Part shown: in pieces, positions 29,247 through 63,864 of the stretch
How the letters are laid out: each line of letters opens with the position of its first letter
Position numbering within the stretch: the stretch's first letter is position 1
Assembly: GCF_035084215.1 (NCBI RefSeq)
Contig: NW_027139260.1
Location: 1-64,000 of the forward strand
Reading direction: 5' to 3'
Length of the DNA: 64,000 nt
Origin: Heptranchias perlo
Lineage: Eukaryota
Program-made: the position numbers and the translations under genes
Notes under the pieces: model-generated
Told to the model about the DNA's origin: nothing
Seen by the model: only the letters and a program-made list of their open reading frames with translations
Databases searched by the model: none

Positions 29247-31073
29247 CATAGAATCATAGAAGTTTACAACATGGAAACAGGCCCTTCGGCCCAACATGTC
29301 CATGTCGCCCAGTTTATACCACTAAGCTAGTCCCAATTGCCTGCACTTGGCCCATATCCCTCTATACCCATCTTACCCATGTAACTGTCCAAATGCTTTT
29401 TAAAAGACAAAATTGTACCCACCTCTACTACTGCCTCTGGCAGCTCGTTCCAGACACTCACCACCCTTTGAATGAAAAAATTGCCCCTCTGGACCCTTTT
29501 GTATCTCTCCCCTCTCACCTTAAATCTATGTCCCTTCGTTATAGACTCCCCTACCTTTGGGAAAAGATTTTGACTATCTACCTTATCTATGCCCCTCATT
29601 ATTTTATAGACTTCTATAAGATCACCCCTAAACCTCCTACTCTCCAGGGAAAAAAGTCTCAGTCTATCCAACCTCTCCCTATAAGTCAAACCATCAAGTC
29701 CTGGTAGCATCCTAGTAAATCTCTTCTGCACTCTTTCCAGTTTAATAATATCCTTTCTATAATAGGGTGACCAGAACTGTACACAGTATTCCAAGTGTGG
29801 CCTCACTAATGTCTTATACAACTTCAACAAGACATCCCAACTCCTGTATTCAATGTTCTGACCAATGAAACCAAGCATGCTGAATGCCTTCTTCACCACC
29901 CTATCCACCTGTGACTCCACTTTCAAGGAGCTATGAACCTGTACTCCCAGATCTCTTTGTTCTATAACTCTCCCCAACGCCCTACCATTAACGGAGTAGG
30001 TCCTGGCCCGATTCGATCTACCAAAATGCATCACCTCACATTTATCTAAATTAAACTCCATCTGCCATTCATCGGCCCACTGGCCCAATTTATCAAGATC
30101 CCGTTGCAATCCTAGATAACCTTCTTCACTGTCCACAATGCCACCAATCTTGGTGTCATCTGCAAACTTACTAACCATGCCTCCTAAATTCTCATCCAAA
30201 TCATTAATATAAATAACAAATAACAGCGGACCCAGCACCGATCCCTGAGGCACACCGCTGGTCACAGGCCTCCAGTTTGAAAAACAACCCTCTATAACCA
30301 CCCTCTGTCTTCTGTCGTCAATCCAATTTTGTATCCAATTGGCTACCTCACCTTGGATCCCATGAGATTTAACCTTATGTAACAACCTACCATGCGGTAC
30401 CTTGTCAAATGCTTTGCTGAAGTCCATGTAGACCACGTCTACTGCACAGCCCTCATCTATCTTCTTCGTTACCCCTTCAAAAAACTCAATCAAATTCGTG
30501 AGACATGATTTTCCTCTCACAAAACCATGCTGACTGTTCCTAATTAGTCCCTGCCTCTCCATATGCCTGTAGATCCTGTCCCTCAGAATACCCTCTAACA
30601 ACTTACCCACTACAGATGTCAGGCTCACTGGTCTGTAGTTCCCAGGCTTTTCCCTGCCGCCCTTCTTAAACAAAGGCACAACATTTGCTACCCTCCAATC
30701 TTCAGGCACCTCACCTGTAGCTGTCGATGATTCAAATATCTCTGCTAGGGGACCCGCAATTTCCTCCCTAACCTCCCATAACGTCCTGGGATACATTTCA
30801 TCAGGTCCCGGAGATTTATCTACCTTGATGCGCGTTAAGACTTCCAGCACCTCCCTCTCTGTAATATGTACACTCCTCAAGACATCACTATTTATTTCCC
30901 CAAGTTCCCTAACATCCATGCCTTTCTCAACCGTAAATACCGATGTGAAATATTCATTTAGGATCTCACCCATCTCTTGTGGTTCCGCACATAGATGACC
31001 TTGTTGATCCTTAAGAGGCTCCACTCTCTCCCTAGTTACTCTTTTGCCCTTTATGTATTTGTAGCTCTTTGGA
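29247..31073 (-). mobile_element. 5'-truncated young CR1 LINE with an uninterrupted RT-domain ORF2 fragment
   Basis: The 586-aa ORF 29327-31087 carries [31 protein letters not shown] and RPHLEYC. The 3' tail reads CATAGAATCATAGAA on the + strand. Confidence 0.96.
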
Positions 31074-31554
31074 TTAAATTTACCCACTAAAATGCCTCAG
31101 CCCGTCTCAAAAAACTGGGCTTCAAATGGATATTTTTATGTCAAAATAGTTGGACAGAAATTTGCATTCTGAGCATGTGTCGTCTATAGAACTTCCCAGC
31201 ATTCAATCTGTACATCAGCCAGAGTTAATATAAAGGACGGGGGTCCCTCCACTCTGGAGCATTTGCGAGTTTCCTTGCTTTTTCCAAGAAATGTTCAAAC
31301 AAACTGGAGATTAAATTCTCAAGAGTAGCCTGAAAAAAAAGCTTTATGTTTTTAAAATTTATTATGAACAAATGCTATTTTTCGATATAAACTGTTCCCA
31401 GACAAACCTGCAATGAGAGCAGGTGTGGTTTTGTTGTTAATGGTTAGAAAAGAAACCAGATTGTTTATCGAGAATGTCTTTTTAGTCACTTCACTTTATT
31501 TCAGTTGAAATTCAGTTTAAAAAAATCTCACTCTTCTGAAACATTTTGAGACTT

Positions 31555-50480: not shown

Positions 50481-50537
50481 TCTTCCCCCACTCCCACTCC
50501 AGGCCCAGGCTCGGGGAGCGGGCCTACACTCTCTTAC

Positions 50538-50786
50538 CTTTAGATTCCGGGGGCCCGCCCGACAGGTTTTTCCAAACATTTAAATTCTGTTTCATGATGG
50601 CGATGTTGGCAGAGATCCCTGCCTCTCCACCCTGCATCGTGTGGCCCTGGAACTCGGGGAGCCGCGGCACCTCCTTCTTCAGATTGAAATCCATGTAGAA
50701 AACCTCATCACCGTTCACCTCCACGTCGAACTGCTTGTCCGGGCTCCGATCCTGCACCACGTAGATCAGGAGGTCTCGGTGCAGGT
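50538..50786 (-). CDS. DAA: MHC class II alpha chain, alpha1 peptide-binding exon, 249 bp
   Basis: (CT)n-cag|AC...AAA G|gtaag, phase 1 at both ends. Translates xLHRDLLIYVVQDRSPDKQFDVEVNGDEVFYMDFNLKKEVPRLPEFQGHTMQGGEAGISANIAIMKQNLNVWKNLSGGPPESK, with the alpha1 hallmarks GDE-FY-DF, RLPEF and NIAI-K-NL, plus an NLS sequon. From memory it closely resembles shark class II A. Confidence 0.96.
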
Positions 50787-50842
50787 CTGAGAGAGAGAGA
50801 GAGAGGATCAAACTCACTGCACCTCACGGGGAGAATTCATAT

Positions 50843-50981
50843 TAATAAACAGAGAATAAACCAGATATTAAACAGAATAAACCAGATATTGAACAGAGAA
50901 TAAACCAGATATTAAACAGGGAATAAACCAGATATTGAACAGGGAATAAACCAGATATTGAACAGGGAATAAACCAGATAT
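50843..50981. repeat. 23-bp minisatellite, left part
   Basis: Unit TAAACCAGATATT(A/G)AACAG(A/G)GAA. Confidence 0.92.
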
Positions 50982-51066
50982 AGAGTCATAGAGTCATAGA
51001 GTTATACAGCACGGATAGAGGCCCTTCGGCCCATCGTGTCCGCGCCGGCCATCAGCCCTGTCTACT

Positions 51067-54006
51067 CTAATCCCATATTCCAGCATTTGGTCCGTAGCCT
51101 TGTATGCTATGGCATTTCAAGTGCTCATCCAAATGCTTCTTGAATGTTGTGAGGGTTCCTGCCTCCACAACCCTTTCAGACAGTGAGTTCCAGACTCCAA
51201 CCACCCTCTGGGTGAAAATGTTCTTTCTCAAATCCCCTCTAAACCTCCTGCCTTTTACCTTGAATCTATGTCCCCTTGTTATAGAACCCTCAACGAAGGG
51301 AAAAAGCTCCTTAGTATCCATCCTATCTGTGCCCCTCATAATTTTGTACACCTCAATCATGTCCCCCCTCAGCCTCCTCTGCTCCAAGGAAAACAAACCC
51401 AATCTTCCCAGTCTCTCTTCATAGCTGAAGCGCTCCAGCCCTGGTAACATCCTGGTGAATCTCCTCTGCACCCTCTCCAAAGCGATCACATCCTTCCTGT
51501 AGTGTGGCGACCAGAACTGCACACAGTACTCCAGCTGTGGCCTAACCAGTGTTTTATACAGCTCCATCATAACCTCCTTGCTCTTATATTCTATGCCTCG
51601 GCTAATAAAGGCAAGTATCGCATATGCCTTCTTTACCACCTTATCTACCTGTTCCGCCGCCTTCAGGGATCTGTGAACTTGCACACCAAGATCCCTCTGA
51701 CCCTCTGTCTTGCCTAGGGTCCTCCCATTCATTGTGTATTCCCTTGCCTTGTTAGTCCCTCCAAAGTGCATCACCTCGCACTTTTCCGGCTTAATTTCCA
51801 TTTGCCACTGTTCCGCCCATCTGACCAACCCATCTATATCGTCCTGCAGACTGAGGCTATCCTCCTCGCTATTTACCACCCTACCAATTTTTGTATCATC
51901 AGCGAACTTACTGATCATACCTTTTACATTCATATCCAAGTCATTAATGTAGACCACAAACAGCAAGGGACCCAGCACCGATCCCTGTGGTACCCCACTG
52001 GCCACAGGCTTCCAGTCACAAAAACAACCTTCGACCATCACCCTCTGCCTTCTGCCACTAAGCCAGTTTTGTATCCAAAGTGCCAAGGCACCTTGGATTC
52101 CATGGGCTCGTACCTTCTTGACCAGTCTCCTGTGGGGGACTTTATCGAAGGCCTTACTGAAATCCATGTATACCACATCCACTGCGTTACCCTCATCCAC
52201 ACGCCGAGTCACCCCCTCAAAAAATTCAATCAAATTAGTCAGACATGATCTTCCCTTGACAAAGCCATGTTGACTATCCCTGATTAATCCTTGCTTCTCC
52301 AAGTGGAGACTAATTTTGTCCTTCAGAATTTTTTCCAATAATTTTCCTACCACTGATGTTAGGCTCACTGGCCTGTAGTTCCCCGGTTTTTCCCTACTCC
52401 CCTTCTTAAATAATGGTACTACATTAGCGGTTCTCCAGTCCTCTGGCACATCCCCTGTGGCCAGAGAGGTTCTGAATATATGTGTCAGAGCCCCCGCAAT
52501 CTCCTCCTTTGCCTCACACAGTAGCCTGGGATACATTTCGTCCGGGCCTGGGGATTTATCCATTTTTAGGCCTGCTAAAACCGCCAATACCTCCTCCCGC
52601 TCGATGTTAATATGTTCGAGTATATCACAGTCCCCCTGCCGTATTTCTATGTCTACATCGTCCTTCTCCATAGTGAAAACAGATGCAAAAAAATCATTTA
52701 GAACCCCTCCTACATCTGCCGGCTCCACACACAGATTGCCATTTTTGTCCCTAATGGGCCCTATTTTTTCCCTAGTCATCCTCTTACCCTTAATATACTT
52801 ATAAAACATCTTAGGATTTTCCTTTATTTTGCTCACCAGTGTTATTTCATGGCCCCTCCTTGATCTAATTTCTTTTTTAAGTATCCCCCTGCACTTTTTG
52901 TACTCCTCTAGGGCTTCCTCCGTCTTTAGCCTTTTGTATCTGCCAAAAGCCCTCCTTTTTTTCCTAATCCATTCTTGTATATCCCCTGACATCCAAGGTT
53001 CCCTGGAGTTCTTGGAACCACCCTTGACCTTTACGGGAACATGTTGCCATTGTATAGTCTCAATCTCCCTTCTGAAAGACTCCCATTGCTCCGATGCGGA
53101 TTTTCCTACAAGCTGCTGATCCCAGTCCATTTTGGCCAGATCCTGCCTTATCCTATTAAAATCGGCCTTCCCCCAATTTAGAACCTTTATTTCCGGCCCC
53201 TCCCTGTCCTTTTCCATGACCACCTTAAATCTCACCGAATTATGGTCACTGTCACCAAAGTGCTCACCTACTAGCACTTCTTCCACTTGGCCGGCCACAT
53301 TCCCTAGAATTAGGTCCAGTACCGCCCCCTCTCTTGTAGGACTTTCTACATGCTGGCTCAAAAAGCTCTCCTGGATGCACGTTAAGAATTTTGTACCCTC
53401 TAAGCCTTTTACACTCTGAGTATCCCAGTTAATATTGGGGAAGTTGAAATCCCCCACTATTATTACCCTATTATTTGCACAATTTTCTGAGATTTGCCTA
53501 CATATCTGTTCCTCTATCTCCCCCTGACTGTTTGGGGGCCTATAGTACACTCCCATCAAAGTGCTTGCCCCCTTTTTGTTTTTAAGCTCCACCCATATGG
53601 CCTCATTAGAGGAACCTGCTAATATATCATCCCTCCTTATGGCAGTAATTGATTCTTTAATTAATATTGCGACCCCCCCTCCTCTTATACCTCCCCCTCT
53701 GTCTCGCCTGAAGATTCTGTACCCCGGAATATTGAGCTGCCAGTCTTGCCCCTCCCTCAATCATGTCTCTGTGACAGCAACCATATCATACTCCCATGTG
53801 TTTATCAACACCTTCAGTTCATCCACCTTATTCGCAAGACTCCTTGCATTAAAATAGATGCCATCCAGCCTTGCCCTCACATATTTGCCCTGTCTTCCAA
53901 GCTGACTTGTTTTTTTCTCTATATTTGGCTGCACATCACCCCCTATTGTAGCTCCACTCTGTATCCCATCCCCCTGCCAAGTTAGTTTAAACCCCCCCCA
54001 ACAGTG
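51067..54006 (-). pseudogene. CR1 ORF2 (APE endonuclease plus reverse transcriptase) with a single nonsense codon
   Basis: The frame is open from 54006 through YFNARSLANK...AVTET. A TGA at 53763-53761 replaces the conserved Trp of TETW. The frame then stays open for 897 codons (YRPPN, GDFN, SDH, FADD). Confidence 0.93.
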
Positions 54007-54460
54007 CTAGCAAACCTCCCCGCAAGGATATTTGTCCCGCTCTGGTTCAGGTGCAACCCGTCCGACTTGTACAAGTCCCACCTTCCCCAGAAGCAGGCCC
54101 AGTGATCCAGGAAACTGAAACCCTCCCTCCTGCACCAACTCTTTAGCCACGCATTCATCTGTTCTATCCTCCTATTTGTATACTCACTAGCCCGTGGCAC
54201 TGGGAGTAATCCAGAGATTACAACCTTTGAGGTCCTGCTCTTTAATCTGCTACCTAGCTCCCTAAATTCTTGATGCAGGACCTCATCTCCCTTCCTACCT
54301 ATGTCGTTGGTCCCAATGTGGACCACGACCTCTGCCTGCTCACCCTCCCCCTTGAGAATGCCCTGTAGCCGCTCAGTGACATCCATGACCCTGGCACCAG
54401 GGAGGCAACAAACCATCCTGGAGTCACGTTTATGGCCACAGAAACGCCTGTCTGTTCCCC
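53982..54460 (-). CDS. CR1 ORF1 C-terminal SGNH-esterase-like domain, 5'-truncated
   Basis: CLPGA, HIGTND and DGLHLN blocks, ending GGGLN*. The GDS block is lost to truncation. Confidence 0.88.
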
Positions 54461-55180
54461 TTGAACAGGGAATACACCAGATATTAAACAGAGAATAAAC
54501 CAGATATTAAACAGAGAATAAACCAGATATTAAACAGAGAACAAACCAGATATTAAACAGAGAACAAACCAGATATTAAACAGGGAATAAACCAGATATT
54601 GAACAGAGAATAAACCAGATATTAAACAGGGAATACACCAGATATTAAACAGGGAATAAACCAGATATTAAACAGGGAATAAACCAGATATTGAACAGAG
54701 AATAAACCAGATATTGAACAGAGAATAAACCAGATATTGAACAGGGAATAAACCAGATATTGAACAGGGAATAAACCAGATATTAAACAGGGAATAAACC
54801 AGATATTGAACAGAGAATAAACCAGATATTGAACAGAGAATAAACCAGATATTAAACAGGGAATACACCAGATATTAAACAGGGAATAAACCAGATATTA
54901 AACAGGGAATACACCAGATATTAAACAGAGAATAAACCAGATATTGAACAGGGAATAAACCAGATATTAAACAGGGAATAAACCAGATATTGAACAGAGA
55001 ATAAACCAGATATTAAACAGGGAATACACCAGATATTAAACAGGGAATAAACCAGATATTAAACAGGGAATACACCAGATATTAAACAGGGAATAAACTA
55101 GATATTGAACAGGGATAAATCCAGATATTGAACAGAGAATAAACCAGATATTAAACAGGGATAAAACCAGATATTGAACC
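54461..55180. repeat. 23-bp minisatellite, right part (about 31 copies)
   Basis: Same unit as 50843-50981. Confidence 0.96.
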
Positions 55181-55274
55181 GGGATGGTCTGAAATATTAA
55201 GCAAATATAATCTGGAACTCATACCACCTGAAAATTGTGGAATGGTCATATTTCCACCTTCTATTTTATTTACT

Positions 55275-62404: not shown

Positions 62405-63864
62405 CGAGTCCCAAGTAAAACCATTACTCTCTTCCACCCTGGTCGTTCCCCATCTCCACCCCTTAAGTCCAAGGGACACAGACTTGAACGTTTATGGCGG
62501 ACAACTGGTTTAGCCATTCATCGCCAGATCTGGCTGGACCACATAAAGCACTATCGGGTCCTGCTCTCCTCTGCCCAAACTGCTCACTATTCCAGGATCA
62601 TCCTGGAATGTAAAGATAATCCCCGGCTTCTCTTCACTACAAACCGTCCTCTTAAACCCCTCTATCCTGCCCCCTCCACCCTCATCTCCAACAAGTGCGA
62701 GGAGCTCATGGACTTCTTTGTCACTAAGATTAAGACCATTCATTCAGCTGCCTCTGATGCTTCCCCCCTTCCCCGAGCCCACAAGCCAAACCTTCCCCTA
62801 CGGTTCCCCCCTGCCCTGGCCCTGACCCCATGTCTCACTCTAGTTTCTCCCCTATCTCACCTCATGCCCTCTCCGAGCTCATCCTGACCATGAGACCCAC
62901 CTCCTGTTCCCTCAATCCTATTCCCAATAAACTGATGACCACCCAACTTCCCTTCCTGGCTCCTATGTTTGCTGATATTGTTAACGGTTCCCTCTCCTCA
63001 GGTACTGTCCCCCTCCCCATTAAATCTGCTGTCTTCAACCCCCCCCCCCCCTCAAAAAACACACCCCTGACCATTTTCCAATCAGGTTTCCACCCCTGTC
63101 ACAGTACTGAAACGGCCCTGATCAAAGTCACAAATGACATCCTCTGTGACTGTGACCGTGGTAAACGATCCCTCCTCATCCTTCTCCACCTGTCTGCAGC
63201 CGTTGACCACACCATCCTCCTCCAACACCTCTCCTCCATCGTCCAGCTGGGTGGGACTGCGCTCACCTGGTTCCATTCTTATCTATCCAGTCGTAGCCAG
63301 AGAATCACCTGCAATGGCTTCTCTTCCCACTCCCGCACCGTTACCTCTGGAGTCCCCCAAGGATCGATCCTTCGCCCCCTCCTATTTCTCATCTCCACGC
63401 TGCCCCTCGGTGACATCATCCTAAAACACAACGTCAGGTTCCACATGTACACTGACGACCCCCAGCTCGACCTCACCACCACCTCCCTCGACCCCTCCAC
63501 TCTCTCTCATTGGTCACATTGTTTGTCCGACATCCAGGACTGGAGGAGCAAAAATTTCCTCCAATTAAATATTGGGGAGACTGAAGCCATTGTCTTCGGT
63601 CCCGGATTTCCTTCACCCCACCATTGGCGGCCGTGCTTCAGCTGCCTAAAGCCTAAGCTCTGGAATTCCCTCCCTAAAGCCCTCCACCTCTCTCCATTCT
63701 CCTTTAAGAAACTCCTTAAAATCAATTATTTGACCAAGCATTTAGCCATCCCATGTAATGTCTCCTTCTTTGGCTCGGTGTCAACCTTTGTCTGAATACG
63801 CTCCAGTGAAGCGCCTTGGGGCATTTTCCTACGTAAAAGGTGCTATATAAATGCAAGTTGTTGT
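62405..63864 (+). mobile_element. Internally deleted L2 LINE, same family as 26155-28578
   Basis: ORFs 62024 and 62830 match the first copy. Same GCTATATAAATGCAAGTTGTTG end. Confidence 0.92.

Follow-up and report, generated by a model that had tools for sequence, protein, structure and literature searches.

Related systems and the element under study

To our knowledge, the translation of the second open reading frame (ORF2) of long interspersed nuclear elements (LINEs) is known for only a few elements, all of which use reinitiation. Here, we examine a CR1-type LINE from Heptranchias perlo that lies on the minus strand of a 64,000-nucleotide stretch of DNA (contig NW_027139260.1 of assembly GCF_035084215.1, positions 1 to 64,000; hereafter, the window). 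Its ORF1 encodes an SGNH esterase and ends in the heptamer U_UUA_AAC, directly followed by a stop codon. Its ORF2 encodes an apurinic/apyrimidinic endonuclease (APE) and a reverse transcriptase (RT) and opens in the -1 frame. A sequence-only reading of the window had proposed that this family joins the two ORFs by programmed -1 ribosomal frameshifting. The conservation of the heptamer, the stop, and the register supports that interpretation, and we put the probability of tandem -1 slippage at U_UUA_AAC, giving an ORF1-ORF2 (esterase-endonuclease-RT) fusion, at roughly 75%. The shift, the fusion protein, and its stimulator are what we infer from these sequences.

The pro-pol junctions of human T-cell leukemia virus and bovine leukemia virus (BLV) use U_UUA_AAC, and shift sites adjacent to a stop codon occur in Rous sarcoma virus and BLV. 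The retroviral and coronaviral U_UUA_AAC sites, such as that of infectious bronchitis virus (PMC5009743), have the heptamer in register, a short overlap, and a structural ORF followed by an enzyme ORF in -1, all of which are also seen here, and the heptamer is listed among the most shift-prone for mammalian ribosomes (PMC5009743). The CR1 junction differs in its purine-rich, C-poor linker, its invariant GGGGG at 10 nt, its lack of a stable downstream stem or pseudoknot, and its host, an element that has no long terminal repeats (non-LTR). The site resembles a retroviral -1 shift site but lacks the downstream structure that is canonical for one.

Mammalian L1 and silkworm SART1 also have a bicistronic RNA, and their ORF2 translation is reported to depend on translation of ORF1 (PMC2881922). 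Both use termination-reinitiation and make a separate ORF2 protein (ORF2p), L1 across a 63-nt spacer and SART1 through an overlapping stop-start, whereas the CR1 frames share no AUG and overlap at a slippery heptamer. TRE5-A and TRE3-A of Dictyostelium, which are APE-type non-LTR elements, are both stated, in the figure legend of a review, to need a -1 frameshift for ORF2 (PMC5911963). The likeness to CR1 comes from that one statement; these amoeba elements belong to another lineage, and no esterase ORF1 is mentioned with it. CR1-clade LINEs of the ZfL2-1 type share with our element an SGNH esterase ORF1, an APE-RT ORF2, and a short-repeat 3' tail, and the word "frameshift" is absent from that paper (PMC3905857). 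In chicken, where CR1 is the most abundant interspersed repeat, it is described as having two separate ORFs (PMC11835228). No report of CR1 frameshifting was found in the literature within reach; the primary CR1 papers of 1997-2003 lay outside it, so an earlier proposal is possible. The title of Haas 1997 reportedly calls the CR1 ORFs "closely spaced".

The junction in the window and in its family

The sequence-only reading placed the junction correctly. On the minus strand, TTTAAAC occupies 53991-53985 in X_XXY_YYZ register, TAA follows at 53984-53982, and a TAG lies at 54009-54007. ORF2 is in exactly the -1 frame, which is open from 54006 to 53764 and reads FKLTWQGDG...YFNARS. In the window, TTTAAACTAR is found once, where 0.08 occurrences are expected. 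The parts of the junction are as follows.

53982..54460, minus strand: ORF1, truncated at its 5' end, with an SGNH/GDSL esterase domain (Pfam Lipase_GDSL_2, PF13472, E 2.5e-15), ending ...GGGLN-stop
53992..53999, minus strand: run of eight G upstream of the heptamer; nine would fuse ORF1 and ORF2 in frame, and seven would break the register
53988..53994, minus strand: second, overlapping heptamer G_GGT_TTA, in register one codon upstream; found in copy L033, with the same letters in the window, and absent from some families
53985..53991, minus strand: slippery heptamer T_TTA_AAC in the ORF1 register, invariant in 8/8 lineages
53982..53984, minus strand: ORF1 stop TAA immediately 3' of the heptamer; in 8/8 families, the most frequent codon here is TAA or TAG
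53970..53974, minus strand: GGGGG run 10 nt past the heptamer, candidate stimulator; invariant in 8/8 lineages, and two of its letters are third-codon positions of the -1 frame
53851..54006, minus strand: AUG-free opening of ORF2 (-1), comprising the ORF1 overlap and a 47-codon linker FKLTWQGDG...
53764..53850, minus strand: start of the APE endonuclease domain, from the NARS motif to VTET (Pfam Exo_endo_phos in copy L033), with a copy-specific ATG at 53784

Copies of this family were sampled by a protein search that gave 51,424 candidates, of which 150 were scored. These are 98-100% identical, and many have a full-length ORF1 frame of 317 amino acids. Genome-wide, 992 of 1,184 exact-match junctions have G8, TTTAAAC, and TAA with ORF2 in -1. 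The remainder differ only in the length of the G-run: 146+3 have a nine-letter run, which fuses the ORFs in frame, and 43 have G7. With ~1,000 exact junctions, CR1 is highly active in this genome. Slippery heptamers in register occur elsewhere than the junction at 3 of ~1,210 codons, so the chance of one in an eight-codon overlap is ~2%.

The sequence-only reading argued that initiation at the first ATG of ORF2 (53784), which lies past the first APE motif, would truncate the endonuclease. The position is right, but that ATG is specific to this copy (of 40 aligned copies, 38 have ATT and 1 has ATG). Among 29 open loci of the family, counted without de-duplication, 28 have the first Met of the -1 frame far downstream, at codon 146-147, and the other has it at codon 24, so the argument is strengthened. 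In copy L033, the Pfam Exo_endo_phos match begins at residue 47 from the heptamer, at position 3 of the 225 in the profile; an AUG start would therefore lose ~100 endonuclease codons. This family has no usable AUG. A PDB search gave only a weak match to Exonuclease III (E 0.35), in which NARS and ET align with N7 and E34, two catalytic residues of that enzyme.

The nine-letter runs raise the question of transcriptional slippage on the G-run, by which one added G would produce an in-frame fusion mRNA. That 149 of the 1,184 genomic junctions are already fused in this way, against 43 with G7, is what such slippage would predict. However, among 73 copies of a control G7 run within ORF2, 15 are longer and 1 is shorter, and G-runs thus have a general tendency to expand. 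The G9 copies are also scattered over haplotypes, and two other families of this genome (F1 and F3) and a related fish contig (L061) have no G-run at that place. Cis preference is established for L1, and under it most copies would be G9. We regard this explanation as scarcely credible. The control run and the haplotype scatter also rule out a selected sub-lineage of in-frame-fused copies.

Conservation among eight families

Of 244 loci, 230 had an anchor and 206 were distinct, and 179 of these were placed in eight family alignments; 18 further F0 copies, 5 unassigned records, and 4 singletons were left out. The heptamer is exact in 152 of the 179 copies (37/40 in F0, 26/30 in F1, 8/8 in F2a, 7/8 in F2b, 4/5 in F2c, 22/26 in F3, 24/32 in F4, and 24/30 in F5). 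The distance from the heptamer to the first APE motif (the Asn of NARS) is 141, 171, 180, 204, 213, 219, 282, or 381 nt, a multiple of three in every family. Among the commonest linker codons, all eight families have no stops in the -1 frame, as against 4-12 in frame 0 and 3-12 in +1. The -1 frame is closed 5 codons upstream of the heptamer (1 codon in F3). Between families, the linkers diverge in both sequence and length; row L191 of one alignment, which had been cut at a wrong position, was excluded. A linker that is free in these respects, yet open in -1 and closed just upstream, indicates that ORF2 translation starts at the heptamer or no more than a few codons from it.

The stop is absent in 9 of 30 F4 copies. 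A stop-less sub-lineage was considered and rejected, as neither the TGG nor the GAG copies form a clade (3 changes each, with a rough bootstrap); these losses are independent mutations. The 381-nt linker of F2b (L136:1998 onward) contains a second copy of the post-shift motif (KLWQGVGNLSRETEE) and is apparently a recombinant of two families in which the -1 register was retained.

A letter-level comparison was made with seven families (F2b, a near twin of F2a, was omitted) and the fish contig L061. TTTAAACTA is invariant in all eight lineages, the ORF1 ends of which are 45-98% identical in protein, as are a G at +13 and GGGGG at +17 to +21. As background, 23 of 96 third positions are invariant, 3 of them in Trp codons, and a single codon is used in 2 of 8 other invariant Leu columns. 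Calculated post hoc, the heptamer's three third positions have a probability of ~0.01, which falls to ~0.0005 when the two in the G-run are added. In contigs of four other organisms (80% likeness), no variant was seen at 53970-53994 among 40 of 42 rows listed, and many lie on either side.

Occurrence beyond this genome

One metagenome scan returned 14 loci, including one close relative, L061; its ORF1 shares 96% identity with a protein labelled as sturgeon. The L061 junction reads CAT TTA AAC TAG and is followed by an open, Met-free -1 frame to YLNARS. The anchor motif was present in 85 of 212 proteins. Of these, 72 stop where expected, 69 of them with LN as the final residues. These 69 come from rays, sharks, a chimaera, sturgeon, turtles, many birds, and an invertebrate-type family. 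Just before LN, 11 different amino acids occur, and K, E, Q, M, and W, the five residues whose codons cannot end in T, never do. Positions -4, -5, -6, and -8 of the ORF1 ends do contain these residues.

Two stork gene models (P0197 and P0206) enter ORF2 at FKLDSKGE. Taken together, the LN-stop of ORF1 and the FKLD of ORF2 point to TTTAAAY-TAG in birds, a deduction from proteins. In-frame mutants from rays and others read GFKLNLQGAG, GFKLDVQGAG, VFKLIWQGDG, and RYLKLVGQGG. The signal marks a single branch, since the distant esterase ORF1s of teleost and coral-type elements lack the LN end. No bird or reptile CR1 DNA was found in two genome-contig scans, two viral scans, and a plasmid search, and a phage search returned an unrelated esterase only. 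The sequence-only reading had suggested comparing the junctions of CR1s from sharks, reptiles, and birds. The heptamer, stop, and -1 register are conserved in DNA in all eight families and one fish contig, and in birds and turtles at the protein level.

In the invertebrate-type LINE ORF1 family (P0070-P0085), which has the C-terminal LN, an SH3 domain precedes the esterase. Two vertebrate CR1 ORF1 proteins, P0026 and P0152, are filed under Proteus mirabilis and Klebsiella pneumoniae; such entries under bacterial names are likely host contamination. A metagenome element (L072:1200-1744) has an esterase-like ORF, a single TGA CTA, and then an APE-like sequence in the same frame (YYNINS...LAETK). 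UGA-CUA is a known readthrough context. This element was seen as one copy, and a Met is present ahead of the motif.

Proposed mechanism and the evidence against it

Under -1 frameshifting, most ribosomes would terminate at the UAR stop and release the esterase ORF1 protein (ORF1p). A minority would slip one base back, with tRNA-Leu moving from UUA to UUU and tRNA-Asn from AAC to AAA, and would read CUA next. The product would be an ORF1p-linker-endonuclease-RT fusion with the junction ...GGLN-LTWQGDG, and the candidate stimulators of the shift are the adjacent stop codon and the invariant GGGGG 10 nt downstream. The consequences would be a low, fixed ratio of ORF2 to ORF1 and an enzyme tethered to ORF1p multimers. 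If so, a vertebrate LINE would be retrovirus-like at this step, with its RT tied to an esterase, and CR1 ORF2 annotations that begin at an AUG would be too short.

Several observations weigh against frameshifting, and they concern the sampling, the presence of AUG codons, and the downstream RNA. The copies are best hits to junction-containing queries, so the within-family counts (152/179) are biased upward and show ancestry, not selection. The eight lineages form only ~3 deep groups (45-60% protein identity), between which codons for the same residue are 41-76% identical, so the letter-level test is a modest one. The DNA evidence outside cartilaginous fish is one contig, with birds and turtles represented by proteins, and both stork models carry a Met in the linker. 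Moreover, L1 ORF2 is reported to be made without AUG dependence and without a fusion (PMC5009743, PMC5972666).

An in-frame AUG precedes NARS in four of the eight families, at codon 23 in F4, 52 in F3, 53 in F2c, and 57 in F5. The sequence-only reading expected no upstream AUG; the family of the window element, three other families, and L061 agree with this, and these four do not. Their AUGs would permit ordinary reinitiation downstream of the stop, in which case the heptamer would merely encode a conserved Leu-Asn C-terminus. The F4 AUG is in good context (G at -3 and +4) and lies ~60 nt past the stop, close to the 63-nt spacer of L1. The positions are unshared, however, and the AUG-bearing families are still open in -1 from the heptamer to the AUG. 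No in-frame -1 AUG occurs before NARS in F0, F1, F2a, F2b, or L061, and this account would not explain why K, E, Q, M, and W never precede LN. We consider reinitiation at a downstream AUG very unlikely. In the ORF1 frame, an ATG 7 codons past the heptamer (53969-53943, minus strand) opens a short frame in 6/8 families; this ATG would divert scanning ribosomes from ORF2.

No stable conserved RNA structure was found downstream of the heptamer: z ranges from -2.15 to +1.98 (36 folds, 12 copies), and only F5 reaches -2. Nor was a stable stem-loop or pseudoknot found 5-9 nt downstream, pseudoknots being judged from the low C content (6-16%) of this purine-rich region and not modelled directly. The TTGGC/GCCAA pairing suggested by the sequence-only reading is present in the minimum-energy fold and yet is weaker than chance (-9.4 kcal/mol, z +1.23, 181/200 shuffles fold as well); folding of the downstream region in 12 copies and the window gives this stem no support. 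The G-run has no common long-range partner among the 12 copies within the DNA of each locus. A local hairpin or pseudoknot probably does not serve as the stimulator.

The G-rich block begins 6 nt past the heptamer, and ViennaRNA predicts a weak, mostly two-tier G-quadruplex in 7/12 copies. The motif of the virus of porcine reproductive and respiratory syndrome (PRRSV) has a spacing of 10 nt. Shifting in PRRSV is described as protein-stimulated, by nsp1-beta with PCBP, and a stop near the shift site is reported to strongly affect shifting in pea enation mosaic virus (PEMV) (PMC5009743). G-quadruplexes are reported to be most effective with a spacer of 6-8 nt, at which engineered three-tier ones give ~7% shifting, and the effect is smaller with fewer tiers (PMC3919603). 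In PRRSV and in G-quadruplex shifting, a short motif, single-stranded or rich in G, stands at a set distance in place of a pseudoknot, a layout that the CR1 junction shares. The CR1 motif differs in being G5 rather than C-rich as in PRRSV, and in that the predicted quadruplexes have mostly two tiers. The lack of a stable fold, the stop effect in PEMV, and the protein stimulation in PRRSV make the adjacent stop and the G5 run the candidate stimulators. By analogy, the G5 run may act as a weak G-quadruplex or a protein-binding site. It could also partly reflect the Gly-rich start of the linker.

The lack of a frameshift-type RNA structure would also fit termination followed by AUG-independent reinitiation at or beside the ORF1 stop. 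This could be L1-like, or a post-termination 80S ribosome could re-pair tRNA-Asn one base back; either would yield a separate ORF2p from near LTWQG. The stop always lies directly after the heptamer, and the fixed register and open linker are explained equally well. Termination-reinitiation is also reported for L1 ORF2 and SART1 (PMC5972666, PMC2881922). Against this stand the first T and the TTA Leu codon, which reinitiation does not need and which are nevertheless both invariant. The eight families have neither an overlapping stop-start (UAAUG type) nor an ORF2 AUG conserved ahead of the endonuclease, and they share no near-cognate start in -1 past the stop. We consider this alternative unlikely and favor tandem -1 slippage.

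A broader proposal is more doubtful. Esterase-type CR1s across jawed vertebrates, and an invertebrate-type lineage, may make their endonuclease-RT as a Gag-Pol-like ORF1-ORF2 fusion and may have kept a -1 signal for this since the shark-bird split, one that works without a pseudoknot and is driven by the stop and a G5 run at a fixed 10 nt, possibly protein-bound. Such a shift stimulator would be of a type new to cellular genomes.

The element, its host locus, and other features

The LINE is 3.5 kb long, runs on the minus strand from ~54460 to 50981, and comprises the SGNH esterase ORF1 (truncated), the APE-RT ORF2, and a tail of short repeats. The rest of the element consists of the following.

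53761..53763, minus strand: premature TGA of this copy, where the family has TGG (copy alignment)
51067..53760, minus strand: remaining ORF2, 897 codons, APE endonuclease and RT (Pfam RVT_1 E 4e-35, Exo_endo_phos_2 E 8.5e-12)
50981..51001, minus strand: 3' tail of short-repeat CTCTATGA units, the end of the element

The element is a CR1-type LINE with an esterase ORF1, as judged from its architecture and from the likeness of ORF1 to bird and turtle proteins. Its short tandem-repeat 3' end, its 5' truncation inside ORF1, and its lack of an LTR are CR1-type features. The nearest named relatives of ORF1 are shark and ray proteins. In copy L033, ORF1 matches the esterase profile PF13472 (E 3.2e-15). 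The ORF2 domains (PF03372, PF14529, and PF00078) place an APE endonuclease ahead of the RT.

This copy is decayed, with a truncated ORF1, a private ATG at 53784, and a private TGA at 53763. At 53763-53761, TGG is found in 82/82 copies chosen by a query that excludes that site. An amplified sub-lineage carrying the TGA in the endonuclease was considered and rejected: all 10 TGA copies traced to a query holding that site, and they have no other variants in common.

The LINE lies in sense orientation within a 23-bp tandem array (50846-50981 and 54464-55184), just upstream of an exon for the major histocompatibility complex (MHC) class II alpha domain. This exon is at 50527-50823 on the minus strand, the same strand as the LINE (Pfam PF00993, E 5.5e-16). 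The insertion site is probably in an intron of the MHC class II alpha gene, the first exon of which was not found. The window has two more RT frames, at 29327-31096 on the minus strand and 62758-63795 on the plus strand (Pfam RVT_1 E 6e-35 and 3e-8).
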